Positions 2,695-43,686 of a stretch of 64,000 nt of DNA are shown here, in pieces (the first letter of the stretch is position 1; every line of letters starts with the position of its first letter). Position numbers and translations under genes: made by a program. The notes under the pieces are model-generated. The model searched no databases and was not told the origin of the DNA. It saw only the letters and a program-made list of their open reading frames with translations. Origin of the DNA: Actinobacteria bacterium UBA959. GTDB lineage: Bacteria; Actinomycetota; Actinomycetes; S36-B12; UBA5976. The stretch lies in the NCBI GenBank assembly GCA_002293025.1, contig DBCL01000015.1, forward strand, positions 24,590-88,589, in the 5' to 3' direction.

Positions 2695-3281
2695 AAACTG
2701 CCTTTAGTGGATGGAATGCCACTGGATCGACTATCTAAAGCTACGGCTTGCTTAAGCGCTCGCCCAAATCCTTTACATTGCGCTTCTACAATGTGATGAC
2801 TGTTGCGCCCACTTAATAATCTGATGTGTAGGCATATTTTGGCCTCCGCCACAATTGATTCAAAAACATGCTTTGTCATAGTTGTGTCGTAGGTACCAAT
2901 TAGCTCCACCATATTTGGTTCTTCATGCACACAATACGGTCTGCCACTTAGGTCAACTACAACTTGCGCTAACGCCTCATCTAATGGGATCAAAGCTGAT
3001 CCAAACCTGGTAATCCCTGATTTATCCCCTAAAGCTTTCCCTAGTGCCTCACCAAATGCCAAAGCAGTGTCCTCAATGCTGTGGTGTGAATCAACCTCAA
3101 CGTCGCCATCTGTTTGAACAACCAGATCTAGCGAGCCGTGTTTAGCAATCTGCTCCAACATGTGATCAAAAAATCCAATTCCAGTGTGGATTTGGGAAAT
3201 ACCAGTTCCATCAAGATCCAGCTCAAGATGAACCTTGGTCTCCTTAGTTACTCGATCAACGATTGCTTTGCGGGACATCAA
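2691..3281 (-). CDS. hisB: Imidazoleglycerol-phosphate dehydratase HisB
   Basis: 196 aa. GIGFFDHML, DSHHSIEDTALAFGEAL and GRNSHHIVEAQCKGFGRAL metal-binding His motifs. Confidence 0.93.
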   Translation of the reverse strand: MMSRKAIVDRVTKETKVHLELDLDGTGISQIHTGIGFFDHMLEQIAKHGSLDLVVQTDGDVEVDSHHSIEDTALAFGEALGKALGDKSGITRFGSALIPLDEALAQVVVDLSGRPYCVHEEPNMVELIGTYDTTMTKHVFESIVAEAKICLHIRLLSGRNSHHIVEAQCKGFGRALKQAVALDSRSSGIPSTKGSL

Positions 3282-4369
3282 GTCTCCTTAGGTGAAGTTG
3301 GAACAATTTTACTTAACTCCGCCAGGAATTTGGTTGTTTCAGCCTCAGTTCCAGCCGTGACTCTTAACCACTTCTCAATTCCAACATCACGGATGAGCAC
3401 TCCACGGTCAGCCAACTTGCGCCAAACCTCATGATTATCGGCAAACTCGCCAAAAAGCACGAAGTTTGCAGAACTTGGAGCAACCTTGAGCCCTAGGTGG
3501 ATTAGCCCTTTTTCAATTCGCTCTCGCTGAACAATGATGGCCTTAACCTGTTCGGCTAATTGCGATTGATGTTTTAAAGCAACCAGGCCAGCGGCTTGGG
3601 TGAGAGCAGACAAGTGATATGGAAGACGCACCAATGATATTGAATCAATAACATCTTTAGAGGCCACTAAATAACCAATTCGCACACCAGCTAGCGCAAA
3701 TGCTTTACTCATGGTTCTTACTACTAAAAGTCTTGGTAACTGTTCTAGCAAGGTAATAGCTGAAACATCCTCTGAAAACTCTGCATAAGCTTCATCAACA
3801 ACAACAATCCCTTGAATATGGTCATGAACTTCCTTGATCAACTGCAAGGATGTTTTGGTTCCAGTTGGATTATTTGGCGTACAGATAAAAACAATGTCCG
3901 AATTCTTTTCTAATTTAGATAAGGAGCTGGAGTCAATCTCAAATGATTCATTGCGAGGAATTGATTTCCAATCTGTACATGTTGTCTGGGCAATTAATTC
4001 ATGAACCGAGTAAGAAGGGACAAATCCAACAGCTAACCGGTCAGGGCCTCCAAATAACTGACAAATTTGTTGCAAAATCTCATTGGATCCATTAGCAGCC
4101 CAAACTTGCCCTGGATCAATGGCAGTACTTGCAGAGCTAGAGATGTAACTTGCTAGTTCTGCTCTAAGGGAAATCGCATCACGATCTGGATAGCGATTTA
4201 GATTTGTGGCTATTCCTGAAATTGCAGATGATAAATCTTGCATGAATAAATCGCTGAGGGGAAATGGATTCTCATTCGTATTTAACTGGACTGGTAAATT
4301 CAGCTGTGGCGCCCCGTAGGCAGTTCTACCAGCCAGGTCTTTGCGAATAGGTAATTCGTTTGACATCAC
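3278..4369 (-). CDS. hisC: Histidinol-phosphate aminotransferase HisC
   Basis: 363 aa. LNTNENPFP, PNNPTG and RTMSKAFALAGVRIGY (PLP lysine). Overlaps hisD and hisB by 4 nt. Confidence 0.9.
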   Translation of the reverse strand: MMSNELPIRKDLAGRTAYGAPQLNLPVQLNTNENPFPLSDLFMQDLSSAISGIATNLNRYPDRDAISLRAELASYISSSASTAIDPGQVWAANGSNEILQQICQLFGGPDRLAVGFVPSYSVHELIAQTTCTDWKSIPRNESFEIDSSSLSKLEKNSDIVFICTPNNPTGTKTSLQLIKEVHDHIQGIVVVDEAYAEFSEDVSAITLLEQLPRLLVVRTMSKAFALAGVRIGYLVASKDVIDSISLVRLPYHLSALTQAAGLVALKHQSQLAEQVKAIIVQRERIEKGLIHLGLKVAPSSANFVLFGEFADNHEVWRKLADRGVLIRDVGIEKWLRVTAGTEAETTKFLAELSKIVPTSPKET

Positions 4370-5705: not shown

Positions 5706-6389
5706 ATGAGTGAGCAATTTGAGTCGGGTAGCGCTTCCCAGATGCGAATTCCCCTATTCCCACTGAACACCGTCTTGGTGCCTGGGTTAGTTATGCCTTT
5801 GAGGCTTTTTGAGCCAAGGTATCTTCTTTTGGCTGAAACTTTAATGGAGTATGAAGAAAGTGATCGCTATTTTGGAATAGTTAAATCGATAGCTAAACCA
5901 AGCCCAGAGATAGAACTAACTATTCATACTGTTGGCACTATTGCTCAAGTTCAGTCCATAAAATCAAATGATGATGGCGAGTTTGAATTGGTTGCTGTTG
6001 GATCAAGAAGATTTCGAATTCTAGAGCTGCACCAAGATTTAATGTACCTAACTGCAGATGTTGAACTTTATCCAGAGGAATCAACAACTGAGATGGTCGA
6101 TCCACTTTTACTCAAAGATACCCTTGACGTCTTTGACAAGTACCGAGAAGTTCTTGGTGTCAGTCTTGGATCTGAAAGTACGATGCCAGATGACCCACAC
6201 ATTGTCTCTTATTTGATCACAGCAGCCGCAATGCTTACTTTGGATGAGCGCCAATTACTGCTTGAGATACTTAGCACAGATATGAGATTAAGAGAGATTA
6301 GAAGAATTCTCAAAAGGGAGAACGCAATTCTAAAACAAGTTAGGTGTTTTCCAACTTTTGAACCAACAGATGACTTTTCACTTAATTAA
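5706..6389 (+). CDS. LON N-terminal (substrate-binding) domain protein
   Basis: 227 aa. IPLFPLNTVLVPGLVMPLRLFEPRYLLL is the LON/PUA-like N-domain opening motif. No ATPase or protease domain. The start could also be Met13 (5742). Confidence 0.6.
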   Translation: MSEQFESGSASQMRIPLFPLNTVLVPGLVMPLRLFEPRYLLLAETLMEYEESDRYFGIVKSIAKPSPEIELTIHTVGTIAQVQSIKSNDDGEFELVAVGSRRFRILELHQDLMYLTADVELYPEESTTEMVDPLLLKDTLDVFDKYREVLGVSLGSESTMPDDPHIVSYLITAAAMLTLDERQLLLEILSTDMRLREIRRILKRENAILKQVRCFPTFEPTDDFSLN

Positions 6390-9300
6390 CTAAAGTTTTG
6401 GGTGGGGTGAGGCAGCTTGGGCCAAGAAGCTGCTTGAGATCTCCATAAAGTCCAGGATTTACCGAAACCCTTAAATTCGCATCGAGTTGTAACAAAGTAC
6501 TGTGGTCGGCATGCTGAACTTCGATTTGAACTTCAGTTGTACCTGGATGATTACTTAGAATGTTTTTCAACTTCTCTACCAGAGGTGGAACAACTCGTTG
6601 TGCAGGCAGATATAGCCGAAGTGCTCCTAGGGGGATCTCCATCATCTGTGGAATGTTTATATCTAAACCAACGAATCTAGGTGTCTCTTCTTCCTTTCGT
6701 TCCATACGTCCCCGAACTGTAATTATGGAATCTTGACCAAGCAGGGCCCCATAATTCGAATAAGTCTGTGGGAAAATCATGACATCTAGCATTCCGTCCA
6801 AGGACTCTAAGTTCAAGATGCACCAGGATGCACCTTGCTTAGTCACTTTGCGCTGAATTGCTGAAACCATACCAGTAATGTTCAAGGTTCTATTCTCGTA
6901 ACTCTCTTCTGTTAAGAGATCTGCAATAGAAACATCACTATTTGCATTGATGATGTGTTCCAAACCAAATAGTGGATGATCACTTACATATAGTCCAAGC
7001 ATTTCTCGCTCAAAACTCAATAGTGTTGACTTCTCCCACTCATCCATAATTGGAACATTTATCACTGAATGACCTGCTGTGGGTTGGGACACTCCCCCGA
7101 ATAGATCAAACTGGCCAACTGCTTCAGCGCGTTTGGTATCAGAGACTGCATCAACGGCCTCCAAGTGGATACTAAACAAAGACCTTCTGGTGTGATTTAG
7201 TGAATCAAATGCTCCAGCTTTGACAAGTGCTTCAAGTACGCGCTTATTGCAAACTGATAATTCAATCTTGTCTAAGAAATCGGCAAAAGAGGTAAATAAC
7301 CCTTTACTTATTCGGCTGCGCACAATACTTTCAACTACCCCTTCACCAACGTTTCTAACTGCCGACAAGCCAAATCGCACATCTACACCAACAGGAGTGA
7401 AGTTGACATCTGAATAATTAACATCTGGTGCTAATACTTTTACGCCCATTCGTCTTGCTTCATTTAGATAAATCGCTAGCTTGTCTTTATCGTCCTTGAT
7501 ACTCGTCAACAGGGCTGCCATGTATTCAGATGGATAATTAGCTTTTAGATAGGCTGTCCAGTATGAAATCAATCCATACCCTGCAGAGTGAGCTTTGTTA
7601 AACGCATAATCACTAAAAGGAACCAAGATCTCCCATAGCTTCTTAATTGAAGCTTCTGAGAATCCCCGCTCGCGCATTCCAGCGTGGAATGGTTCAAACT
7701 CTTTCTCTAGTTTCTCTTTGTCTTTCTTGCCCATTGCCCGTCGCAATAAATCTGCTCCACCAAGGGTGTAACCAGCTAGTTTTTGAGCGATAGCCATAAC
7801 TTGCTCTTGATAGACAATTACTCCGTAAGTTTCACCAAGTATGTCGGCAAGCGGCTCTTCCAACTCTTTACTAATTGGTTTAATTGCTTCCCGTCCATTT
7901 TTCCTATTTGCATAAGCCACGTGTGCGTCCGCGCCCATCGGCCCCGGGCGATACAAGGCAATTACAGCAGAGATGTCTCCAAATGAATCTGGCTGCAGCA
8001 ATCGCAAGAGCGAGCGCATTGGACCACCATCAAGCTGAAAAACTCCGAGCGTTTCACCTCTGGAGAGCATGGCATAAGTTTCTTTATCATCAAATGGCAG
8101 CTCTTCTAGAACTATTTCCTCTCCTCGGTTTTTCTTAATGTTAATAATGCATTCATCTAAGACAGATAAATTCCTTAATCCCAGGAAGTCCATCTTCAAC
8201 AATCCAAGCGATTCACAGGCGCCCATATCAAATTGGGTGATGATCGATCCATCTTCACGTTTCCAAACGGGAATCACATCCATTAACGGTTCGCGACTTA
8301 AAATAACGCCTGCTGCGTGAACTCCGGGCTGGCGTTTGAGGCCTTCTAGTCCTTTAGCAGTGTCAACCACTGTTTTCATCTCATGGTCAGACTCGTAGGA
8401 ACTGCGGAAATCAGCACCTTCATTAAATCGCTCGTGTGTGCTATCGAAAATCTCTTTCAATGAAACATCTTTACCCATGATTGGCTGTGGCATTAATTTG
8501 GTGATTCGGTCCCCAACTGCATATGGGAAGCCCAGAACTCGGGCAGCATCCTTAACAGCAGCTTTCGCTTTAATGGTTCCATAAGTAACAATCTGTGCAA
8601 CACGATCATCGCCATACTTATCAGTGGCATATCGAATCATTTCGGAACGTCGGCGTTCATCAAAATCGATATCAATATCTGGCATTGAAATTCGCTCTGG
8701 GTTCAAAAATCTTTCGAACAATAGGCCGTGCTTGATTGGATCCAATTCGGTAATACCTAATGCCCAGGCAATGACTGATCCACCAGCAGATCCTCGGCCC
8801 GGCCCTACCCTGATTCCATTTTCAACAGCGTGCCGACATAAGTCAGCTACAACTAAAAAGTAGCCCGGGAATCCCATCTGGGCTACAACTGATATTTCGT
8901 ACTTGGCTTGCTCTACATGAGTATCTAGTGGCTTTCCTTTGAAGCGCTTAAGTAATCCGCGTTCAACTTCTTGGATCAGCCAAGTTTCTTCAGTATGCCC
9001 TGCTGGTACTGGAAATCTTGGTAATAGATCTGCTCCTTCATTAAACTTAACGTGACAACGCGATGCAATTTCTAAAGTATTTGTGATTGCCTCTGGAAAA
9101 TCTTTCCAAACAGCTCGCATTTCATCTGCGGACTTGATGTAGAACTCGCGAGCATCGAATTTGAATCGGTTTGGGTCTGCCATGGTAGTTCGGGTGCCAA
9201 CACACAGCAGCGCTTCGTGGGCATCAGCATCACTCGCGTGCACATAATGCGTATCGTTAGTTGCAAGTAAAGGTAATTTCAGTTCTTTTGCGATCTTTAG

Positions 9301-9921
9301 CAGGTCTTCTCGATGTCGTCGCTCAATTTCAATGCCATGATCCATCAACTCGCAATAGAAATTATCCTTACCAAAAATATCTTGCAGGTTCGCGGCTGTA
9401 GCTTTCGCTTTTGAATATTTCCCAGCCTGCAGCCATCTATTTACCTCACTACTAGGACATCCAGTAGTAGCAATCAACCCTTTTGCATAACTGGTTAGCA
9501 GTTCTTCATCCATGCGGGGTTTGTAGTAATAACCTTCAATACTGGCCAGCGATGAAAGTCTAAAAAGATTGTGCATTCCTTCCGTGGTTTCACTTAATAA
9601 AGTAATGTGGGTATAAGCAGAACTTCCTCTCGCTAATCCTTCAGCAGCATCTTCATTTCCCGAAACTCCAAATTCAAAAGGCTTACGTTGTGATCGCCCT
9701 TGTGGCGCGTAGTAACCTTCCAAACCGATTATTGGATTAATTCCTTGAGCCCGACATTTTGTGTAAAACTCATATGCACCATAAAGATAGCCATGATCAG
9801 TGATTGCAATTGCTGGCATTTTTTGATTTTTGACTTCGTTAACAAGATCGTCTAAGCGCGCCGCCCCATCCAGCATCGAGTACTCGGTGTGCACATGAAG
9901 GTGCACAAATGAGTCGCTCAC
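6382..9921 (-). CDS. dnaE: DNA polymerase III alpha subunit (replicative DnaE1)
   Basis: 1179 aa. PHP domain FVHLHVHTEYSMLDGA, palm PDIDIDF, FNKAHSAGY, and the internal beta-clamp motif QFDLFG. Confidence 0.97.
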   Translation of the reverse strand: MSDSFVHLHVHTEYSMLDGAARLDDLVNEVKNQKMPAIAITDHGYLYGAYEFYTKCRAQGINPIIGLEGYYAPQGRSQRKPFEFGVSGNEDAAEGLARGSSAYTHITLLSETTEGMHNLFRLSSLASIEGYYYKPRMDEELLTSYAKGLIATTGCPSSEVNRWLQAGKYSKAKATAANLQDIFGKDNFYCELMDHGIEIERRHREDLLKIAKELKLPLLATNDTHYVHASDADAHEALLCVGTRTTMADPNRFKFDAREFYIKSADEMRAVWKDFPEAITNTLEIASRCHVKFNEGADLLPRFPVPAGHTEETWLIQEVERGLLKRFKGKPLDTHVEQAKYEISVVAQMGFPGYFLVVADLCRHAVENGIRVGPGRGSAGGSVIAWALGITELDPIKHGLLFERFLNPERISMPDIDIDFDERRRSEMIRYATDKYGDDRVAQIVTYGTIKAKAAVKDAARVLGFPYAVGDRITKLMPQPIMGKDVSLKEIFDSTHERFNEGADFRSSYESDHEMKTVVDTAKGLEGLKRQPGVHAAGVILSREPLMDVIPVWKREDGSIITQFDMGACESLGLLKMDFLGLRNLSVLDECIINIKKNRGEEIVLEELPFDDKETYAMLSRGETLGVFQLDGGPMRSLLRLLQPDSFGDISAVIALYRPGPMGADAHVAYANRKNGREAIKPISKELEEPLADILGETYGVIVYQEQVMAIAQKLAGYTLGGADLLRRAMGKKDKEKLEKEFEPFHAGMRERGFSEASIKKLWEILVPFSDYAFNKAHSAGYGLISYWTAYLKANYPSEYMAALLTSIKDDKDKLAIYLNEARRMGVKVLAPDVNYSDVNFTPVGVDVRFGLSAVRNVGEGVVESIVRSRISKGLFTSFADFLDKIELSVCNKRVLEALVKAGAFDSLNHTRRSLFSIHLEAVDAVSDTKRAEAVGQFDLFGGVSQPTAGHSVINVPIMDEWEKSTLLSFEREMLGLYVSDHPLFGLEHIINANSDVSIADLLTEESYENRTLNITGMVSAIQRKVTKQGASWCILNLESLDGMLDVMIFPQTYSNYGALLGQDSIITVRGRMERKEEETPRFVGLDINIPQMMEIPLGALRLYLPAQRVVPPLVEKLKNILSNHPGTTEVQIEVQHADHSTLLQLDANLRVSVNPGLYGDLKQLLGPSCLTPPKTLVN

Positions 9922-36735: not shown

Positions 36736-37101
36736 TTAGTCTTGAGATCCCTGTTCGCGCTGATCCCAGCGCTTCTCAAACTTGTCCATGAAGTTTGGTT
36801 TTGGTTGATTGGACGCTGCAGGTTTGGCTGTCTTGGTTTGTTCAGACTTTGGGCTTGTTAGCACCAATATTCCTACCAAAACTAGGACAAACCCTCCAAT
36901 GCCCAGTGCAGTCAAGGGGATGGTGACCGCACCAATGATCAGGGCGACCCCAAGCGCTACCAAAAGCATCGCTACAGGAGCAGATTTCCGGGATGTGAAG
37001 TTTGGGCGACCACGCAGGGCGGAAGCAAACTTAGGGTCTTCGGCGGCTAGCGCCTTTTCCATCTGTTGAAGCAAACGTTGTTCATTCTCTGATAGCGGCA
37101 T
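36736..37101 (-). CDS. DUF3040-family small membrane protein
   Basis: 121 aa. MPLSENEQRLLQQMEKALAAEDPKFASALRG followed by two TM segments is the DUF3040 pattern. A homologous gene lies near mraZ in other actinobacteria. Confidence 0.7.
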   Translation of the reverse strand: MPLSENEQRLLQQMEKALAAEDPKFASALRGRPNFTSRKSAPVAMLLVALGVALIIGAVTIPLTALGIGGFVLVLVGILVLTSPKSEQTKTAKPAASNQPKPNFMDKFEKRWDQREQGSQD

Positions 37102-37160: not shown

Positions 37161-38396
37161 CTATTCCTGTAAATCATCAGATTGTGAAACTAATCGCGCA
37201 GGCTTAACTGCTTGATCTCCAAATCTTTCACGGGCCTTGTCTATAGCTTGATCAGCCTGGGGCCAGCCATGCTCTGGCGCATCCAAGGTTGGTTGAATCG
37301 CGGCACCAACTGAACTATGTAAGCCTTCAACTCTAACTCCAACAAGTCTAATGCGGGCTCGCTGCAGGCCAAGCTTTTGATAAAGACCTTTTGCAATGGA
37401 ATTTATCTCTTGGGTCGTGTTGGTGTAGCCCTTGATTGTTTGTGATCGCGTGATCGTGCTGAAATCATTAAACCTCAGCTTGACACTAATTGTTCTACCC
37501 ACAAGTTCTCGACTTCTAAGTCTGGAAGCCACTAAATCTGAGAGCCTCAATATTTCTGCTTCAATCTCAGTAGGTTTAAAGACATCTACATCAAAAGTAT
37601 GTTCGTGGCCAATTGATTTATCTGGTTCATAAACCACAACTTCACGTTCATCCCTCCCCCACGCTAGGTCATGAAGATGCTCACCTGCTGCCTCCCCAAG
37701 TATTTTGATAAGTGTCTTTACAGGTAATTGGGCAATATCACTTATTTTCTTTAGTCCAAGCTCGACTAGTTTTTCTTCTGTTTTTGATCCAACTCCCCAG
37801 AGTGCATTTACTGGTAGCGGATGCAAAAACTCTAAGACCTGATCAACTGGGACTACTAACAAACCATCTGGTTTGGCATAAGTGGAAGCCAATTTTGCAA
37901 CAAATTTAGTACTTGCAATCCCAACTGAAGCCGTAAGCTGAAGCTCATTTTTTATTTTGCTACGAAGTAAGTCACCAATTGCCCTTGGTGTTCCTAGAAG
38001 TTTTCTGGACCCTGTGACATCTAAAAAAGCTTCATCTAAGGAAATCGTTTCGACTAGTGGTGTGACTGAAAGCATTATTTCCAGCAGCTGCTCAGATGTT
38101 TCCGCATACTCCTGGTGGTCTGGTGAGACCACAATCACCTCTGGGCATAATCGAATTGCTCGGGACATTGGCATTGCCGCATGAATGCCAAATGCTCGAG
38201 CTTCATAAGTTGCTGCTACAACTACTCCTCTACCTGAATTGCCTCCTACAATTACTGGCTTACCTTTTAAGTTTGGATTCCGCTTTACTTCAACTGATGC
38301 ATAAAATGCATCCATATCAAGATGCAAAATATTGCAGCCTTGATCGCTATCACCAAGCTTTGGAATACTAGTTCGGTTTAATTGATTTTTACTCAC
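37161..38396 (-). CDS. dinB: Y-family DNA polymerase IV (DinB), catalytic residues intact
   Basis: 411 aa. ILHLDMDAFYASVE (catalytic Asp pair region), ATYEARAFGI, SLDEAFLDVTG (catalytic Asp-Glu). GTG start overlaps the dnaE2 TAG (TAGTG at 38394-38398). Confidence 0.9.
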   Translation of the reverse strand: MSKNQLNRTSIPKLGDSDQGCNILHLDMDAFYASVEVKRNPNLKGKPVIVGGNSGRGVVVAATYEARAFGIHAAMPMSRAIRLCPEVIVVSPDHQEYAETSEQLLEIMLSVTPLVETISLDEAFLDVTGSRKLLGTPRAIGDLLRSKIKNELQLTASVGIASTKFVAKLASTYAKPDGLLVVPVDQVLEFLHPLPVNALWGVGSKTEEKLVELGLKKISDIAQLPVKTLIKILGEAAGEHLHDLAWGRDEREVVVYEPDKSIGHEHTFDVDVFKPTEIEAEILRLSDLVASRLRSRELVGRTISVKLRFNDFSTITRSQTIKGYTNTTQEINSIAKGLYQKLGLQRARIRLVGVRVEGLHSSVGAAIQPTLDAPEHGWPQADQAIDKARERFGDQAVKPARLVSQSDDLQE

Positions 38397-41300
38397 TACC
38401 TACCACTGCTCCCAGGGCTTTTATGCCATAAATGTGCTGGTAGGTCATTATGTGATTCTTTCAAATTATTTGCTGCCGTTCTAACATTATTACCGACATT
38501 GCCACTTGGAGCAATATCAGCATACGGCGATTGCACTAATCCACTGGCATGCAACAGCAATTTTCGAGCAGGCCCCATTCCTCCGGTCAATCTTCGATCA
38601 CGACTTGCGTTAGGTACAGCCATCAATTCAGTCTCCTCTGTAGATTCAGCTATCTCACCTACTGGTTGATTTAGATAGTTAATAACTGCTTCGACTCCTT
38701 GCTCTCGCCAAATTTGATGCAGGTCTGTTAGCTGCCAACATCCCAGGCCGCTAATCGAGACAGCTCTAGGGCCAGTACGACGGATTAAGCCTTTAACCAA
38801 AACTAACCAAGAATTGAAAATGCTGTCATGAAAGTGATGTTGTGCCTCATCAAAAAAGGCGATATCAATAGGGCCAGAACCATCATCTAACGTGACAAAA
38901 ACTACTCGCTTACCAGATCTAATCGGAGGCGTTTGAGTGGCAACTTTTACACCTGCAACAAATATTTCTGATCGAGATCTTCTAGTTAGCAAGTTTTGAC
39001 TACTAATCAGTGCAATTTGAGAACTTAGATCTTTTAAAAAATCAAAGTGAAACGATAAAACATGATTAGTGGCGTCTAGGCCAAGTACTCGAAGTTCATT
39101 TTTGACTTGCTCGGCTGGGGTCATCTCAGGTAAGCCAACTAATTTATTTTGACTATCTGGAGCTATCTCAAGAAATAATTGTCCAGGTGTTTTTGAGACG
39201 CCTTTGAATTTAACTAAATCTGCTAATTCAAGTAGCAAGTCTCTCCGACTTCTACTAGAGCGATAAATGCTGTTCCCTACTCTGTGTAGCTCATCGAAAG
39301 CACCTGTAGTGATTAACCTCTCAACTACTGGGCGGCTTATAGGTACTCGGTTAAAAAAGTCGCTTAGGCTGCCATATGGCTGACCTAGCACAATTTGCTC
39401 TGCCTCCTGAGTGCTTATTCCTAGTATCTCCAGAAAAGAGATTCGAATGGCATACTGATTACTTTCATTTGAATCATTATTAAGGTCATCTATTTCGACT
39501 TGGTAGCTAAGCTTAGATTTGTTAATATCTAAACCAAGTATTTTTATACCAAAATTTCGAGCATCATTAAGAATCAGTCTCTTGGGATACATTCCTGGAT
39601 CGTGAGTTAACACCCCAGCCAAGAATGCTGCTGGGTAATGCGCTTTTAGCCAGGCGGATTGGTAAGTAGGGATTGCAAAAGCGGCAGCATGCGCCTTACA
39701 AAAACCAAAAGATCCAAAAGCTTTTAAGGTTTGCCATACTTCCTCGACAATGTTCAATTCATACCCACGCTTAAGGGCAGCTGGATAAAACTTTTGCTTA
39801 ACTTCAGCTTGCGATTCGAAAGTGCCTAAGCCACGCCGATACTCATCAGCTACTGCCAAAGTGCATCCAGTCATAACTGAAAATACTTGCATTACCTGTT
39901 CATGGAATACCACAACCCCAAATGTCTCTTGTAGCACTGGTTTTAGATCAGGATGTGGGTATTTCGCAGCAGCCCATCCATGCCTACCTTCTAGAAACGG
40001 TTTAACCATGTCGGACTTAACTGGCCCTGGCCTAAATAGAGATATATCTACTATCAAGTCATGCATATTTTGTGGGGCTAATTTGCCAATTAATTCTCGT
40101 TGTCCTGGAGACTCAATCTGAAAACACCCTAGAGTTTGAGTTGTTTTGATCAAATCATATGTTGCTTGATCATCTACTGGAATTACTTCTAAATCAATCT
40201 TGCGCTCTGTTACTCGCTCAATCTCAGTTAAAGCATGCCTAATAGCAGACTGCATTCTTACACCCAAGACATCTAATTTAATTAAACCTAGATCTTCCAC
40301 ATCATCTTTATCAAAAGCAGTCATCGGAAAATCTTGACCACTTGGTTGGACTGGAATGCGATTTAACAGTCCAGCATCTGAGATCACGACACCGCACGGA
40401 TGCATTGCCCTGTGCCTAGGTAGCGCATCTAATGCTTCAACAAAATCAAATAATTTATTAAACTGCAACTTGGTAGCACCAGATGCATAGCTCGAATTTC
40501 TTAGCTCTGGTAGATCATTTAGTGCTGCTCTGATATCTCGTGCCCTAATATGCGGGAAAGATGTAGCAAGAGCAGATATCTCTCCAGCTGGCAGCATAAG
40601 AGCTGCACCTACATCTCGAATTGCATGGCGTACCCGATAAGTATCTAGCATCGAAACTGCAGCAACTCTTTCTTTGCCAAACTTATTTAAGATCATTCGG
40701 TAAATATCCAGTCTGCGATCAGATTCAACATCAATGTCTATATCTGGAAGTGATCTGCGCTCAGGTGACAAAAAGCGCTCCATCAGCAGTCCATGATCTA
40801 ATGGATTAACTGAAGAAATACCTAGTAAATGAACTATTAAACTGCCAGCAGCCGAACCTCGAGCATTTACTCGTGAGCCTAAAGTTTTGACATCATCAAC
40901 CACGCTAGCAACTGTTAGAAAATATGCAGCAAAGCCCAACTTAGCAACTACTGCCAATTCTTCATCTAATCGATTTTTGACCTGAATTTTTCTATCTAAA
41001 CCATAACGCTCGAGTGCGTTAAATGTTCTAGATCTCAGAATTGCTTGAGCCTTACTTGCGTCATTTGCTTGATGTCTAATTGATTCACTTGAACTTGTAG
41101 TAGGCATGGTCAGTAGGCCAAGTTCTGGTAGGTGCACTCGCCCCCAGCCCAAGTCTCGAACTGGATCTAATGCACAACTGCTTGCCAGCAATTCAGTATC
41201 AAGAAGTAGTTTCTTTGCTCGAGTAGCATCTCTAGTTATTGCTAGGGCAACTTCAGTCATTTCTATATCAGTTTTTAGAAATGACTGATTTTCTCCAGGG

Positions 41301-42085
41301 TCATATGAGTTTTTAGTCAGAGGTATTAACTGTCTAATTGCATCAAGCAGGTCTGCTATCGGTGCTTCTTGAGGGTCTAAATATCTAACCGTATTAGTTA
41401 AAACTGCCTTAAGGCCATGCTCATCAGCAAACTTAAGCATTCTTGCTGCAAAAGCATTACTTAACAATCCTGTTTGATGTCCATGTGAAGTGATTGCAAT
41501 TACTGGAATAAGTCCCGTTTGTTGCTTCCAGTGCTGAATAAGAGCTAGTGCAACATCTGGTCGCCGACCATGTAGAGCCTGGGCAAACTCCGACTGCCAC
41601 CCCCAAAGAGCAACTATTGGCGCATCTAAAGAATTACTTATAGGTGCAAAATCACTTGTGATCAGTTTACCAATTTCATTAATACTAATTACTGGGCTAT
41701 TAAATTTATATTCATTACTTGCTGATATTGAAGAAATTTTTGATAAGAAAGGCCAGCCATGCCTACCTCTACCTAGTAACACAAATCGAGGATGTTTAGG
41801 GTCGATGTGTTTGCCACCATGTGCTGGAGTGCGGCGAATATTCGTGCTTGTTTGACTAGAGGTTATTCCACTTGCTTTGATTGCCAAATCTATTCCTAGT
41901 ATTGGGGTTATTCCAGATTCAATACATGATCTAACAAATCGAACAGCTCCCCCAATTTCATCGCGATCTGTTAGGGCGATCCGGGTAAACCCTTTAAATT
42001 TTGCATATGAAACTAATTTCTCAGGCAAAGCAGTTCCATGTCTCATTGAAAAAGCACTAGCTGTTTGTAAATGGGTAAATGTCAT
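38396..42085 (-). CDS. dnaE2: Error-prone DNA polymerase III alpha paralogue DnaE2
   Basis: 1229 aa. PHP N-terminus without an epsilon/tau-binding tail, PDIDIDVES, FCKAHAAAFA, C-terminal ...LWHKSPGSSGR tail as recalled for DnaE2 proteins. It is a second alpha paralogue besides dnaE at 6382-9921. LexA box upstream. Confidence 0.88.
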   Translation of the reverse strand: MTFTHLQTASAFSMRHGTALPEKLVSYAKFKGFTRIALTDRDEIGGAVRFVRSCIESGITPILGIDLAIKASGITSSQTSTNIRRTPAHGGKHIDPKHPRFVLLGRGRHGWPFLSKISSISASNEYKFNSPVISINEIGKLITSDFAPISNSLDAPIVALWGWQSEFAQALHGRRPDVALALIQHWKQQTGLIPVIAITSHGHQTGLLSNAFAARMLKFADEHGLKAVLTNTVRYLDPQEAPIADLLDAIRQLIPLTKNSYDPGENQSFLKTDIEMTEVALAITRDATRAKKLLLDTELLASSCALDPVRDLGWGRVHLPELGLLTMPTTSSSESIRHQANDASKAQAILRSRTFNALERYGLDRKIQVKNRLDEELAVVAKLGFAAYFLTVASVVDDVKTLGSRVNARGSAAGSLIVHLLGISSVNPLDHGLLMERFLSPERRSLPDIDIDVESDRRLDIYRMILNKFGKERVAAVSMLDTYRVRHAIRDVGAALMLPAGEISALATSFPHIRARDIRAALNDLPELRNSSYASGATKLQFNKLFDFVEALDALPRHRAMHPCGVVISDAGLLNRIPVQPSGQDFPMTAFDKDDVEDLGLIKLDVLGVRMQSAIRHALTEIERVTERKIDLEVIPVDDQATYDLIKTTQTLGCFQIESPGQRELIGKLAPQNMHDLIVDISLFRPGPVKSDMVKPFLEGRHGWAAAKYPHPDLKPVLQETFGVVVFHEQVMQVFSVMTGCTLAVADEYRRGLGTFESQAEVKQKFYPAALKRGYELNIVEEVWQTLKAFGSFGFCKAHAAAFAIPTYQSAWLKAHYPAAFLAGVLTHDPGMYPKRLILNDARNFGIKILGLDINKSKLSYQVEIDDLNNDSNESNQYAIRISFLEILGISTQEAEQIVLGQPYGSLSDFFNRVPISRPVVERLITTGAFDELHRVGNSIYRSSRSRRDLLLELADLVKFKGVSKTPGQLFLEIAPDSQNKLVGLPEMTPAEQVKNELRVLGLDATNHVLSFHFDFLKDLSSQIALISSQNLLTRRSRSEIFVAGVKVATQTPPIRSGKRVVFVTLDDGSGPIDIAFFDEAQHHFHDSIFNSWLVLVKGLIRRTGPRAVSISGLGCWQLTDLHQIWREQGVEAVINYLNQPVGEIAESTEETELMAVPNASRDRRLTGGMGPARKLLLHASGLVQSPYADIAPSGNVGNNVRTAANNLKESHNDLPAHLWHKSPGSSGR

Positions 42086-42375
42086 TAGCTAGCACTTCTA
42101 ATCAGGATCCATTGATCGGCTTCCTGGTCGTAATCAATACCAATTACTAAATAGGTTTGATTTTTAACTTGAGGGCTAGATTTAACTAGCGTTAACTTTC
42201 GCTGCTGTTGCATGTAGTCCCCTAATATCAAAAGTGATACCGGGGGAACGGTGTTGGCTTGGGCGTAGTCAGCAGCTGTGCTTCCCCGCACCGCGCTGAC
42301 TACACCAAGTGCAATTGAGTCATGGGGTCGAAGTTGACACCAATCGCACCGACTGCAACTAGGTAGCGAACCCAA
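42085..42375 (-). CDS. Hypothetical small protein translationally coupled to dnaE2 (start uncertain: TTG 42375, or the only ATG at 42213 giving 42 aa)
   Basis: The stop TAA overlaps the dnaE2 ATG (TAATG). The track start is a TTG codon. The single in-frame ATG (42213) is preceded by AGGGGA. A CxxCxxC cluster is present only in the long version. No family recognised. Confidence 0.35.
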   Translation of the reverse strand: MGSLPSCSRCDWCQLRPHDSIALGVVSAVRGSTAADYAQANTVPPVSLLILGDYMQQQRKLTLVKSSPQVKNQTYLVIGIDYDQEADQWILIRSAS

Positions 42376-42426
42376 TTCAGTCCAAAGCCAATTTCGATTA
42401 GGTGTTTAGCCGTATCCGGAGGCTAT

Positions 42427-42442
42427 TCGAACACCTGTTCGA
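42427..42442. promoter_or_regulatory. LexA (SOS) box, actinobacterial type TCGAAC-N4-GTTCGA
   Basis: TCGAACACCTGTTCGA exactly matches the mycobacterial/actinobacterial SOS-box consensus. It is embedded in a perfect 10+10 nt palindrome CTATTCGAAC-ACCT-GTTCGAATAG (42423-42446), 47 nt upstream of the first possible start of the small-ORF/dnaE2/dinB operon. Confidence 0.75.
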
Positions 42443-42516
42443 ATAGCAGTAGTCAAGCATGAAGGGCTGACATCAAGCAACCGCCCCTGAAATTAGGTCG
42501 TTTCCAGCCTTGCTGC

Positions 42517-43686
42517 CTAGGCCGTTCCCGATTTTGCTGCCCCTAAGCCAGCCAGAATCTGTACCCCTGAAATCAAAATCATCACAGCCAGACCAAAGGT
42601 CCAAGCCCCTGAAATTTGATAGAGCACACCCATGAAAATTGGCCCAGTCGCGGCTAGTAAATAGCCAAAGCTTTGCATCATTGCTGAAAGCGCCTGGGCA
42701 TGATTACTGTCTGAAGATCTTAGAACTACCAAGATCAATGCCAGCGGAAACGTGGCTGAGGTCCCAATTGATGCCACCATAATCCAAATCACCAAACGCC
42801 AACCCGAGTCCAGCATCACTCCAAGAAATCCAATTCCAGCAAAGCCCGTTGCAATTACTAAAACTAAGCGTTGATCTGCACGCTTAGCTGCAATATGTGG
42901 CACTCCAACTGCGAATAAAGAGCCAAGCAGGCCAGTAACTGCCACAGCTGCTCCTGCATGAATTAACTCAAATCCCTTGTCATACAAAATAGTTGGTAGC
43001 CATGTTCCAGCGGCATATGCATTTGTTGACTGTAATCCAAAAAACAAAGTTACCTGCCAGGCAACTTTACTTTTGATCAAGACCTTGAAATGTGACACTT
43101 CATTTGGCGTGTGCTTGCTTAATGTTTGATCACGCATTCTGCGTTGCCACCAATAAGCTGAAATTGCCGCAATTAGCGCCCAAGGAACAAATGCCATCTG
43201 CCAACCTAGTGAATTGAGTTTGGATAACGGCACTGAAACTCCAACAGCAATACCAGAGACAACTCCCATAATTGTTACATATATTCCTGTAAACAGGCCT
43301 GAATCTTTTCCACCATACTCTTTAACCCAGGCAGGTAGAAATACATTTAAGGTGGCGATTGCCAAGCCCATCACAAATGTGAACACATACAAAGCAATTA
43401 CAGAACCAGTTGCACGCAGTACTAGCGAAAAAGCTAGAACCCACATGGCCACCGAAAGTATTCGGTCGACAGACCCCATCCGCGACACCCAAGAAGTCAA
43501 GGGCGAGGCAAAAGCAAAACAAAGCACTGGGATTGATGCCAACCAAGATAGCTCGATGGTGCTCAATCCAAGATCAATTCCAATCACAGTGATTATTGGG
43601 GTAATGGCAATTTGTCCTGCACGCATATTTAAGGCCGCTACATAAATTGGCATTCCACGGTTGATGCGACTAGAAAGTGAACTCAA
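42517..43686 (-). CDS. MFS transporter (CynX/NimT-like subfamily by recall)
   Basis: 389 aa, about 12 TM segments. N-terminal ALNMRAGQIAITP motif typical of CynX-type MFS proteins. The track start is TTG at 43686. Met12 (43653) is an alternative. Confidence 0.8.
   Translation of the reverse strand: MSSLSSRINRGMPIYVAALNMRAGQIAITPIITVIGIDLGLSTIELSWLASIPVLCFAFASPLTSWVSRMGSVDRILSVAMWVLAFSLVLRATGSVIALYVFTFVMGLAIATLNVFLPAWVKEYGGKDSGLFTGIYVTIMGVVSGIAVGVSVPLSKLNSLGWQMAFVPWALIAAISAYWWQRRMRDQTLSKHTPNEVSHFKVLIKSKVAWQVTLFFGLQSTNAYAAGTWLPTILYDKGFELIHAGAAVAVTGLLGSLFAVGVPHIAAKRADQRLVLVIATGFAGIGFLGVMLDSGWRLVIWIMVASIGTSATFPLALILVVLRSSDSNHAQALSAMMQSFGYLLAATGPIFMGVLYQISGAWTFGLAVMILISGVQILAGLGAAKSGTA

Follow-up and report, generated by a model that had tools for sequence, protein, structure and literature searches.

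The closest described relative of the cassette analysed here is the DnaE2B–PolY–ImuB-C–RecA module of Actinobacteria (Timinskas et al. 2019, PMC6511836; NAR 2026, PMC12926913). Genomes that encode DnaE2B are devoid of imuA and imuB, and AlphaFold multimer models of the module, with ipTM values of about 0.84–0.87, support the formation of complexes; the published case for complexes in this class consists of such models (PMC12926913). The exemplar from Tessaracoccus lapidicaptus carries ImuB-C, DnaE2B and PolY in that order under consecutive accessions (VEP41449-41451), and its PolY has been modelled bound to RecA, the C-terminal motif of PolY being treated as RecA-binding (PMC12926913). In the DnaE2B–PolY–RecA module of Bacteroidetes (Cellulophaga algicola; PMC6511836, PMC12926913), two apparently active polymerases are found without ImuB-C; this module belongs to another phylum, with a PolY of the Bacteroid-PolY2 group, and reflects an independent origin rather than the loss of ImuB-C. 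The canonical ImuA′–ImuB–DnaE2 mutasome of Mycobacterium tuberculosis is likewise built around a C-family polymerase linked to the SOS response and a Y-family partner, and the literature regards the ImuB-C of the module as homologous with that of the canonical mutasome. Four complete Nanopelagicaceae genomes tabulated in PMC12926913 (Ca. Nanopelagicus limnes and hibericus, Ca. Planktophila dulcis and vernalis) are each listed with two C-family polymerases, one DnaE1 and one DnaE2B, and with only one Y-family member, which leaves them, as far as this tabulation goes, without an ImuB.

The window, by which we mean the entire 64-kb stretch of DNA analysed, derives from a freshwater member of the acI/Nanopelagicales lineage, and its cassette proteins have identical counterparts in ‘actinobacterium acAMD-5’. 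The features considered below are as follows.

42427..42442, no strand assigned: LexA (SOS) box TCGAAC-AGGT-GTTCGA, within the promoter block TTGACT ... TAGCCT
42214..42419, minus strand: structured 5′ leader of ~210 nt, between the operator and the first start codon
42258..42309, minus strand: long leader hairpin, with the conserved apical loop GGGGAA(G) at 42281-42287
42242..42248, minus strand: UUCCCCC segment, complementary to the loop GGGGAA and to the ribosome-binding site AGGGG
42218..42223, minus strand: Shine-Dalgarno-like AGGGGA, 4 nt before the ATG at 42213
42085-42375, minus strand: small ORF in its longest reading, 96 aa from a TTG
42085..42213, minus strand: probable ImuB-C remnant ORF (C-terminal half of DUF6504), 42 aa from the ATG at 42213
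38396..42085, minus strand: DnaE2B-type C-family DNA polymerase, 1229 aa
37161..38396, minus strand: DinB, a Y-family polymerase (Pol IV) of the PolY-core type, 411 aa from a GTG
6382..9921, minus strand: replicative DnaE1, outside the cassette and included for contrast only

A preliminary description of this DNA had reported three chained minus-strand ORFs without an ImuA′- or ImuB-like companion, and both points are borne out. Direct reading places the stop of the small ORF over the polymerase start (TAATG at 42083-42087) and the polymerase stop over the GTG start of DinB (TAGTG at 38394-38398), while phmmer and HMM scans of the six-frame translation of the 64-kb window detected no second Y-family ORF, no ImuA′-like ORF and no RecA. 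The same description suggested a minimal or alternative mutasome, of which one half is supported, namely the reading as a mutagenesis module that would operate free of ImuA′/ImuB and with an active Y-family polymerase. It is not a new class. Judged by sequence, the cassette is a member of the known DnaE2B–PolY–ImuB-C–RecA module (PMC6511836, PMC12926913) and shares the gene order of the T. lapidicaptus exemplar, from which it differs in having ImuB-C cut to 42 aa; we therefore rejected the idea of a new kind of mutasome. Assignment to the canonical DnaE2A mutasome was likewise rejected, there being no dead Y-family subunit with a fused ImuB-C and no ImuA′ in the window; in contrast to the canonical arrangement, the Y-family partner is active and lies downstream. 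The Streptomyces cellulosae plasmid cassette (L023) served as the canonical system in this comparison.

The 1229-aa protein contains PHP (weak), DNA_pol3_alpha, finger, HHH_6 and OB domains in Pfam. It retains the catalytic motifs PDIDID and KLDVLG, has a degenerate PHP site (HLQ, MRHG, TDRD) and is without the tau-binding C-terminal domain of DnaE1; its C-terminal tail (GGMG..LLHASG..SPYADI..KLWHKSPGSSG) is common to its clade. The earlier label ‘dnaE2’ proved imprecise, since the protein is as distant from the canonical DnaE2A of Streptomyces (29.5% identity) as from DnaE1 (28%), identities to DnaE1, DnaE2A and Deinococcus DnaE2 all lying at 28-30%, and it falls short of the NCBIfam cut-off for DnaE2 (PRK05672, 588.7 vs 939) as it does of that for DnaE1 (622.7 vs 1002). 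The same Streptomyces DnaE2A scores higher against the DnaE1 of the window than against the cassette polymerase. In a neighbour-joining tree the protein groups with the Nonomuraea and Streptomyces plasmid polymerases (49% and 45% identity), and over its variable N-terminal 425 aa it shares 36% identity with the DnaE2B of T. lapidicaptus. The retained aspartates, disrupted PHP site and clade grouping are those of the DnaE2B group, to which the sequence would assign it. The slightly higher score to the DnaE1 model, the NCBI name ‘DNA polymerase III subunit alpha’ carried by relatives and a QLxLxL-like motif where DnaE1 has its clamp motif could be taken to mean that this is a second replicative, DnaE1-like alpha subunit and not an error-prone enzyme. 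We regard this as very improbable: both scores lie far under their cut-offs, the active site and C-terminal domain are degenerate or missing as described, the gene sits behind a LexA box and adjoins a Pol IV, and the clade is that of DnaE2B in the published phylogeny (PMC12926913). Moreover, a bona fide DnaE1 is encoded in the same window, with a strong PHP domain (177.6 bits), intact HxH/D/TDHG residues and the clamp motif QFDLF, its match to DNA_pol_IIIA_C being weak and sub-threshold (18.6 bits, cut-off 22.5).

The preliminary description had also held that DinB retains its catalytic residues, and the intact motifs LDMDAFYASVE (DMD) and SLDEAFLDVTG (SLDE), together with a PRK03858 score of 418.6 against a cut-off of 367 and Pfam matches to IMS and IMS_C, agree with this. 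DinB thus appears to be an active Y-family polymerase, as is the PolY of the DnaE2B module, and it is 51% identical to the exemplar PolY VEP41451 over 387 aa (E = 2e-133). This match takes in the C-terminal motif GW..A..AID.A..RFG..AV..ARL, which is kept in all relatives; this RecA-NT-like motif had been overlooked before. The hhalign alignment of the DinB tail with RecA N-termini is in register but weak (P = 0.0045, probability 7.8%, with approximate RecA queries). Pfam DUF4113 gave no match in the tail, and DinB, the sole Y-family ORF of the window, carries no fused β-barrel domain. Where no QLxLF-type clamp motif had been seen in DinB, we find a candidate, QPTLDA, aligned with QL[LIS]L[GD] of relatives; a second candidate, QLFLEI, occurs in the polymerase at the position of QFDLF in the window DnaE1.

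A further revision concerns the small ORF, previously read as a 96-aa protein without identity. Its start is most likely the ATG at 42213, hence a product of 42 aa: AGGGGA stands upstream of this codon, and when the orthologous ORFs of relatives are aligned, their ATG falls on the same codon, with CAGGAG in the place of AGGGGA. Although a Pfam scan of the window ORF returned no domain match, the protein is most likely the C-terminal half of ImuB-C (Pfam DUF6504). Full-length, 86-aa orthologues from sister lineages match DUF6504 at 25.9 and 24.5 bits (cut-off 24.2), and the 42-aa peptide aligns only with their last ~41 residues and with HMM positions 51-94 (E = 0.005-0.008). An AF2 model of a full-length orthologue predicts six strands (pLDDT 88), of which the remnant would span roughly the last three. 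The ImuB-C protein QBR94233 of the published survey matches DUF6504 at 61.4 bits; when the DUF6504 profile was compared directly with one ImuB of Streptomyces, no similarity emerged, so the equation of DUF6504 with ImuB-C draws on the labelling in that paper and on operon context. No second DUF6504 copy was found in the 64-kb window, which, in place of the standalone full ImuB-C of the DnaE2B module, thus holds only ~41 C-terminal residues. An adaptor role for ImuB-C is doubtful in this genome because the C-terminal half alone survives. In the Nanopelagicales loci L058 and L069 the gene is lost altogether, while box, leader, polymerase and DinB are kept. If the 42-aa remnant is inert, the window cassette would effectively be of the DnaE2B–PolY–RecA type, as these two loci already are.

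Conservation of the polymerase–DinB adjacency and of the small ORF, put forward earlier as a check, was found in related genomes. Of 39 non-Streptomyces GTDB loci, 29 encode a full-length DinB no more than 6 kb downstream from the polymerase, and 33 have DUF6504 upstream of it. The adjacency extends across several actinobacterial orders at 45-60% protein identity; one gene lies between polymerase and DinB in several relatives, so that tight coupling is not universal, and Geodermatophilaceae carry the polymerase without a nearby DinB. A SAV_6107-type HEPN gene lies between ImuB-C and the polymerase in 32 of the 39 and is absent from the window cassette; its product might serve the module as an additional subunit or as a regulator. 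The module description in PMC12926913 is silent on LexA boxes, a leader RNA and a HEPN gene, and the latter two are described in neither that article nor PMC6511836.

The perfect TCGAAC-N4-GTTCGA site noted earlier is confirmed and unique: TCGAACAGGTGTTCGA at 42427-42442 is the sole zero-mismatch copy in 64 kb, where by our own arithmetic ~0.004 copies of such a 12-base palindrome are expected by chance. Sequence and position of the box are kept in four loci with polymerases 57-61% identical (L005, L009, L010, L014), and the surrounding promoter block is common to the window and diverged relatives. Perfect boxes with different N4 spacers precede the cassette in L002-L004, L012 and most non-Streptomyces loci among 80 GTDB-genome loci, so that the position of the box is kept although the spacers differ, and the box itself is kept across several actinobacterial orders. 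The putative operator thus has the form expected of the actinobacterial LexA regulon, and the proposal of LexA control gains support from the perfect or near-perfect box before the first cassette gene in nearly all relatives examined. The Streptomyces DnaE2B–iPolY (scDinB2) operon, whose polymerase shares a clade with that of the window (45% identity), is similar in that its Y-family gene overlaps the end of the polymerase gene and a LexA-like box (TCGTAC-N4-GTTCGA) lies upstream, ~90 nt from the start; it differs in that the Y-family partner is without its N-terminal catalytic part and ImuB-C is absent.

We consider it probable that the locus is a DnaE2B-type operon of the actinobacterial kind, encoding error-prone polymerases under SOS control, and that it works in the following way. 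LexA would bind the box overlapping the promoter and DNA damage would lift repression, as we infer from the conservation of the operator. A single transcript would carry the ~210-nt leader, the 42-aa ImuB-C remnant, DnaE2B and an active, Pol IV-like PolY, with the overlapping stop and start codons coupling translation of the ORFs. By analogy with the published models, PolY could bind RecA through its C-terminal RecA-NT-like motif and dock on DnaE2B, such that RecA would stand in for ImuA and an active PolY for the dead ImuB. Most relatives also encode a standalone ImuB-C β-barrel and usually a SAV_6107-type HEPN protein; with the HEPN gene gone and ImuB-C halved, the working unit in the window lineage is probably DnaE2B–PolY(–RecA). 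The short ORF is probably kept mainly for delivering ribosomes to the polymerase start codon, and the leader probably adds translational control, with the GGGGAA loop and the first ORF's ribosome-binding site as alternative pairing partners of the UUCCCCC segment.

It is also conceivable, as the preliminary description had allowed, that two independent translesion polymerases share a LexA operon for co-regulation only, each acting on its own lesions without forming a complex. Both enzymes retain catalytic residues and have their own candidate clamp-binding motifs, the ImuB-C adaptor is truncated in the window and absent in L058/L069, the polymerase of Geodermatophilaceae does without a nearby DinB, and complexes of the PolY–RecA type await experimental interaction data according to PMC12926913. 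Nevertheless, we judge this unlikely, considering the persistence of the adjacency across several actinobacterial orders at 45-60% protein identity and the predicted complexes of the published multimer models, with the ipTM values given above. In addition, the Streptomyces polymerase of this same clade is coupled to a truncated Y-family partner classed as inactive (PMC12926913), which is sensible only as a subunit.

Less probable still, in our estimation, is a cassette decaying in a streamlined genome, in which the truncation of ImuB-C would mark loss of function and the polymerases would be future pseudogenes. It is true that ImuB-C is without its N-terminal half and that no HEPN gene is present, accessory genes have been lost repeatedly in Nanopelagicales (L031, L032, L058, L069), and DnaE2 is typical of fairly large genomes according to the published survey. 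Yet both long ORFs are intact with their catalytic residues, and a cluster of 118 members shows identical or almost identical polymerases in many samples. The box is a perfect palindrome, the promoter block around it is kept in comparison with diverged relatives, and the four Nanopelagicaceae genomes cited above keep one DnaE2B and one PolY.

The conserved hairpin of the leader between operator and first start codon is apparently undescribed: among 4227 Rfam covariance models none matched the window at gathering score, or 42050-42550 at E <= 1. The leader has a minimum free energy of -87.1 kcal/mol, where shuffles give -60.0 +/- 4.4 (z = -6.1), and for five orthologous leaders RNAalifold predicted a consensus of 68 pairs, of which 20 show compensatory changes. 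The GGGGAAG loop recurs in 12 loci spanning several actinobacterial lineages, atop long stems whose sequences are unrelated. When the stems are aligned without gaps and anchored by position, 81.8% of cells are paired, compared with 57% in shuffles (0/500 reach the observed value) and 36-45% in a control with slid partners, and 10 of 12 pairs have changed on both sides. A covariance model (R2) retrieved only these leader copies in 1.36 Mb searched. CUUCCCC or CUUCC follows the loop by 33-65 nt in 10 of 11 loci. Pairing of loop and segment reaches 98.6% of cells, in an alignment that leans towards structure because it was anchored by hand; in that same hand-anchored alignment, three pairs have changed on both sides, in the L005/L009 lineage only. 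Pairing of the segment with the ribosome-binding site is present in both the minimum-free-energy and the consensus folds. On the basis of this complementarity, we tentatively propose, as a possibility to which we give somewhat less than even weight, that the leader is an undescribed cis-regulatory RNA in which the GGGGAAG loop would mimic the ribosome-binding site, CUUCCCC would act as an anti-Shine-Dalgarno sequence, and a three-way switch between loop, anti-Shine-Dalgarno sequence and ribosome-binding site would gate translation of the error-prone polymerases after LexA removal. A factor acting in trans, for example a protein or the 6C sRNA of Actinobacteria with its C-rich loops, might set the switch.

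The three chained minus-strand ORFs of the preliminary description, joined by stop/start overlaps at TAATG and TAGTG, and its perfect LexA operator are all present in the sequence. The elements of the cassette are:

42427-42442, LexA box TCGAACAGGTGTTCGA, the sole perfect TCGAAC-N4-GTTCGA of the window
42085-42375, minus strand, small ORF (ORF call), 96 aa if started at TTG
38396-42085, minus strand, polymerase (ORF call), 1229 aa
37161-38396, minus strand, DinB (ORF call), 411 aa from GTG

A consensus sigma-70 promoter scan gave no match at the operator. Six-frame translation of the window returned one Y-family and two C-family polymerases, bearing out the earlier remark that it holds neither an ImuA'-like nor an ImuB-like ORF, and the same scan found no RecA ORF. 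The GC content of the window is ~45% and its nearest relatives carry the annotation Candidatus Nanopelagicales. KGA09645.1 and KGA09646.1 of 'actinobacterium acAMD-5' have the same sequences as the cassette polymerase and DinB, and an ENA metagenome scaffold of the same species (L001) is 99.6% identical to the window, with ~78 substitutions over 23.7 kb apart from an N run. This run of 10 N falls within dinB (L001 14359-14368, window 37723-37727), and because of it the L001 dinB product is listed as 413 aa without a Pfam match. A DUF3040 membrane-protein gene (window 36736-37101) follows DinB in all Nanopelagicales loci and is succeeded in the window by mraZ and the dcw cluster, so the cassette slot is fixed between the MTHFR region and mraZ.

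The cassette polymerase has the domain set of a DnaE-type alpha subunit and scores below both curated NCBIfam cut-offs (622.7 vs 1002 for DnaE1; 588.7 vs 939 for DnaE2). A genuine DnaE1 is also encoded in the window (6382-9921); its PHP domain is strong, its match to the DnaE1 C-terminal domain weak and below threshold. Alignment with this DnaE1 and with relatives reveals that the cassette polymerase retains PDIDID and KLDVLG, has substituted PHP metal ligands (HLQ, MRHG, TDRD), carries QLFLEI at the position of the DnaE1 clamp motif QFDLF, and lacks the DnaE1 C-terminal domain, ending instead in a tail with GGMG, LLHASG, SPYADI and KLWHKSPGSSG. In a neighbour-joining tree (1069 columns), it groups with Nanopelagicales homologues, Nonomuraea and Streptomyces plasmid polymerases. 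Its identity is 49% to Nonomuraea and 45% to a Streptomyces plasmid polymerase, and only 28-30% to DnaE1, Streptomyces DnaE2A and Deinococcus DnaE2; Streptomyces DnaE2A itself scores higher against the window DnaE1 than against the cassette polymerase. A tail of the pattern GGMG..R.LLHASGF.QSPYADIKP.G...KLWH.SPGSSG, within the last 120 aa, is common to Nanopelagicales and Nonomuraea and partly to Streptomyces. These clade motifs are missing from DnaE1 and DnaE2A, and we found no discussion of them in the literature consulted.

ImuA-ImuB-DnaE2 variants without ImuA were described by Timinskas and Venclovas in 2019 (PMC6511836). The later survey, Timinskas et al. 2026 (PMC12926913), distinguishes three DnaE2 groups (A, B and X) and states that ImuA and ImuB are missing from DnaE2B genomes. 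Its modules include 'DnaE2B-[ImuB-C]-PolY-RecA' (Tessaracoccus lapidicaptus) and 'DnaE2B-[ImuB-C]' (Arthrobacter alpinus), the actinobacterial DnaE2B modules being backed by AlphaFold multimer models. For Ca. Nanopelagicus limnes, Ca. N. hibericus, Ca. Planktophila dulcis and Ca. P. vernalis, the genome table gives four polymerases each, namely one DnaE1, one DnaE2B, one of the A family and one of the Y family (PolY-core). With a single Y-family member, these four complete genomes therefore lack ImuB, which answers, for close relatives only, the genome-wide ImuB check that the preliminary description called for. The initial proposal of a mutasome without ImuA'/ImuB pointed in the right direction but is not new, as the class had already been published (PMC12926913, PMC6511836). 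The published answer is that an active PolY and RecA, usually with ImuB-C, would serve as stand-ins for ImuA'/ImuB beside DnaE2. Set against the gene content of the loci of 39 relatives, the window cassette is, on sequence grounds, a reduced member of this class, comprising the operator, half an ImuB-C, the polymerase and DinB. The cassette itself is little more than one further lineage of the published class; what remains of interest is the stepwise loss of accessory genes, an unreported HEPN gene in relatives and the leader RNA.

DinB scores above the NCBIfam PRK03858 cut-off and has the catalytic motifs. Its identity to the PolY of the published tetramer, from T. lapidicaptus, is 51% (E = 2e-133), and the match extends through the C-terminal tail (...QPTLDAPEHGWPQADQAIDKARERFGDQAVKPARL vs ...QPALDEPVHGWTDAERAIDKAVLRFGPRAVQRARL), which is kept in all relatives. 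Comparison of this tail with RecA by hhalign placed AIDKARERFG opposite ALGQIEKQFG in a weak match, and Pfam DUF4113 (RecA-NT) gave no match on the tail. We accept the tail as a putative RecA-NT motif because it is homologous to that of the exemplar PolY, and not from our own RecA comparison. Just upstream lies QPTLDA, where aligned relatives have QLLLDA, QLILGA and QLSLGE, and this is plausible as a candidate clamp motif, degenerate at the second position.

The product of the small ORF had been taken as an unknown small protein and is a decayed ImuB-C, matching the C-terminal part of DUF6504 and having full-length orthologues in sister lineages. These sisters, low-GC lineages with polymerases 57-61% identical to that of the window, encode one 86-aa ORF that overlaps the polymerase start and reaches the Pfam DUF6504 (PF20114) cut-off. 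The window ORF aligns solely to the last ~41 residues of the sister proteins (QRKLTLVKSS..YLVIGIDYDQEADQWILIRSAS vs ERKIWRLAAKS..IVIEICYDPELAQWQLIRKLAQ) and matches the C-terminal half alone of two DUF6504 HMMs (E = 0.005-0.008). The LexA box and the polymerase start are 357 nt apart in the window vs 485-488 nt in the sisters, and the window ATG at 42213, with AGGGGA, aligns to the sister ATG, with CAGGAG. Taken together, these comparisons indicate that the ORF has lost ~44 codons by internal deletion. The 96-aa reading from TTG was rejected, as its upstream 54 residues are without counterpart and relatives start at the aligned ATG. An AF2 model of the full-length DUF6504 protein is a six-stranded all-beta domain (pLDDT 88), of which the 42-aa remnant would retain roughly the last three strands, making it unlikely to fold as a barrel. 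DUF6504 is equated with the ImuB-C of the published class because the authors' own sequence, QBR94233, reaches 61.4 bits with PF20114 and because the lexA-(weak IMS)-DUF6504-dnaE2 operon of a Deinococcus grandis plasmid is laid out like the published split ImuB. Alignment of DUF6504 with one Streptomyces ImuB gave no similarity (hhalign, probability 0.6%), its profile found no match among PDB sequences, and tblastn of the protein against plasmids returned three copies only, weak or standalone.

We scanned 80 loci from GTDB species representatives (L026-L105) with local HMMs, 39 of them from outside Streptomyces and 41 from Streptomyces.

Cassette genes found with the polymerase in the 39 non-Streptomyces loci
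18/39, DUF6504, HEPN and full DinB adjoining the polymerase
9/39, DUF6504 and HEPN, DinB not within reach (Geodermatophilaceae, some truncated contigs)
5/39, DUF6504 and DinB
4/39, HEPN and DinB
2/39, DinB only
1/39, frameshifted DinB

Almost all of these loci have a perfect TCGAAC-N4-GTTCGA, its N4 variable, ahead of the first cassette gene. The Streptomyces loci carry TCGTAC-N4-GTTCGA ~90 nt before the polymerase, which is accompanied by a truncated Y-family gene in 40 of the 41. In high-GC relatives, the cassette opens with DUF6504 and HEPN_SAV_6107 genes. The HEPN gene (Pfam PF18726; 89.6 bits in L003) lies between DUF6504 and the polymerase in several actinobacterial orders (L002 9531-9974; L003 7583-7978; L004 7577-7993), is present in 32 of the 39 non-Streptomyces loci and is missing from the window. 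SAV_6107 itself, going by gene numbering, presumably lies near the Streptomyces dcw cluster. The 2013 HEPN survey includes the SAV_6107 family and assigns it neither a genomic context nor the RxxxH motif; the gene is unmentioned in the main text and supplements of the 2026 polymerase survey (PMC12926913), and our literature search found no paper naming both 'HEPN' and 'DnaE2'.

In the Nanopelagicales MAG loci L058 (5772-6000) and L069, a minimal cassette consists of a LexA-like box with one mismatch, a leader of 245 nt (z = -8 to -10) composed of three long hairpins, the polymerase and DinB; neither locus contains a DUF6504 or HEPN ORF. The cassettes form a reduction series, in which relatives have full ImuB-C and HEPN, the sisters ImuB-C only, the window half of ImuB-C, and L058 and L069 neither. 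Very small freshwater genomes of 1.2-1.4 Mb retain four polymerases, of which two are error-prone and LexA-controlled, and have shed the accessory genes singly. From the series one can read which parts are dispensable, and it could steer minimal reconstitution of a still uncharacterised mutasome class.

The RNA between the LexA box and the first ATG contains the following elements:

42214-42419, leader of ~210 nt from operator to ATG, z = -6.1 vs shuffles
42258-42309, central hairpin with loop GGGGAA(G) at 42281-42287
42242-42248, UUCCCCC segment

A leader RNA with a covarying hairpin, a GGGGAAG loop and a complementary CUUCCCC is common to distant relatives and has no match in Rfam. The consensus structure of five orthologous leaders includes 20 compensatory pairs, and the L058 leader reaches z = -8.3. 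The same loop sits atop long stems of unrelated sequence in L002, L003, L030, L035, L039 (from Acidothermaceae B102), L048, L058 and L065, in each case with a spacing of 25-145 nt from the preceding LexA box. Counted over a gapless, position-anchored alignment, the 12 inner pairs show 81.8% pairing vs 57% in shuffles (0/500 reach 81.8%) and 36-45% for slid partners, and both sides have changed in 10 of the 12. A covariance model of the hairpin found the leader copies alone in 1.36 Mb.

Other readings of the leader were rejected. As a coding sequence it has an open frame in some relatives, yet the peptides are unrelated; a terminator of the upstream MFS gene or a mobile repeat is at odds with the position of the hairpin downstream of the LexA box and with its constant place in loci with differing upstream genes. 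The occurrence of several G-U pairs speaks for a sense-strand RNA. Not every cassette of the family has a structured leader: the median z over 42 loci is -1.1 vs -0.8 in controls, and the structure is confined to a subset.

For this structured RNA we tentatively suggest an arrangement of decoy Shine-Dalgarno (SD), anti-SD and SD. In 10 of 11 loci CUUCCCC follows the loop by 33-65 nt, with CUUCC where the loop is GGGAAGC, in each case the exact complement of the loop. The loop and CUUCCCC pair in 98.6% of cells, three pairs being compensatory, in a hand-anchored alignment in which the changes come from one lineage. The UUCCCCC of the window pairs with the ribosome-binding-site AGGGG in both MFE and consensus folds. 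If functional, the hairpin would add a second safety catch at translation to the control of transcription by LexA. The leader may have a trans partner in the actinobacterial 6C sRNA, whose loops are C-rich and which in Corynebacterium glutamicum is tied to the SOS response (PMC5014011).

Neighbouring genes in two further settings may be mentioned. In L015 and L016, a putative SRAP/YedK-like ORF (3102-3593; recognised by eye, ...CLIPVTGYYEW...) lies directly upstream of the LexA box and a DUF6504-like ORF, and would fit the SRAP/ImuB-C network that Aravind et al. described in 2013. On linear Streptomyces plasmids, a Ku gene adjoins the DnaE2B-iPolY pair in one case (L021 3829-4824, Streptomyces goshikiensis) and a canonical imuA'-imuB-dnaE2 cassette in another (L023 10479-11333).
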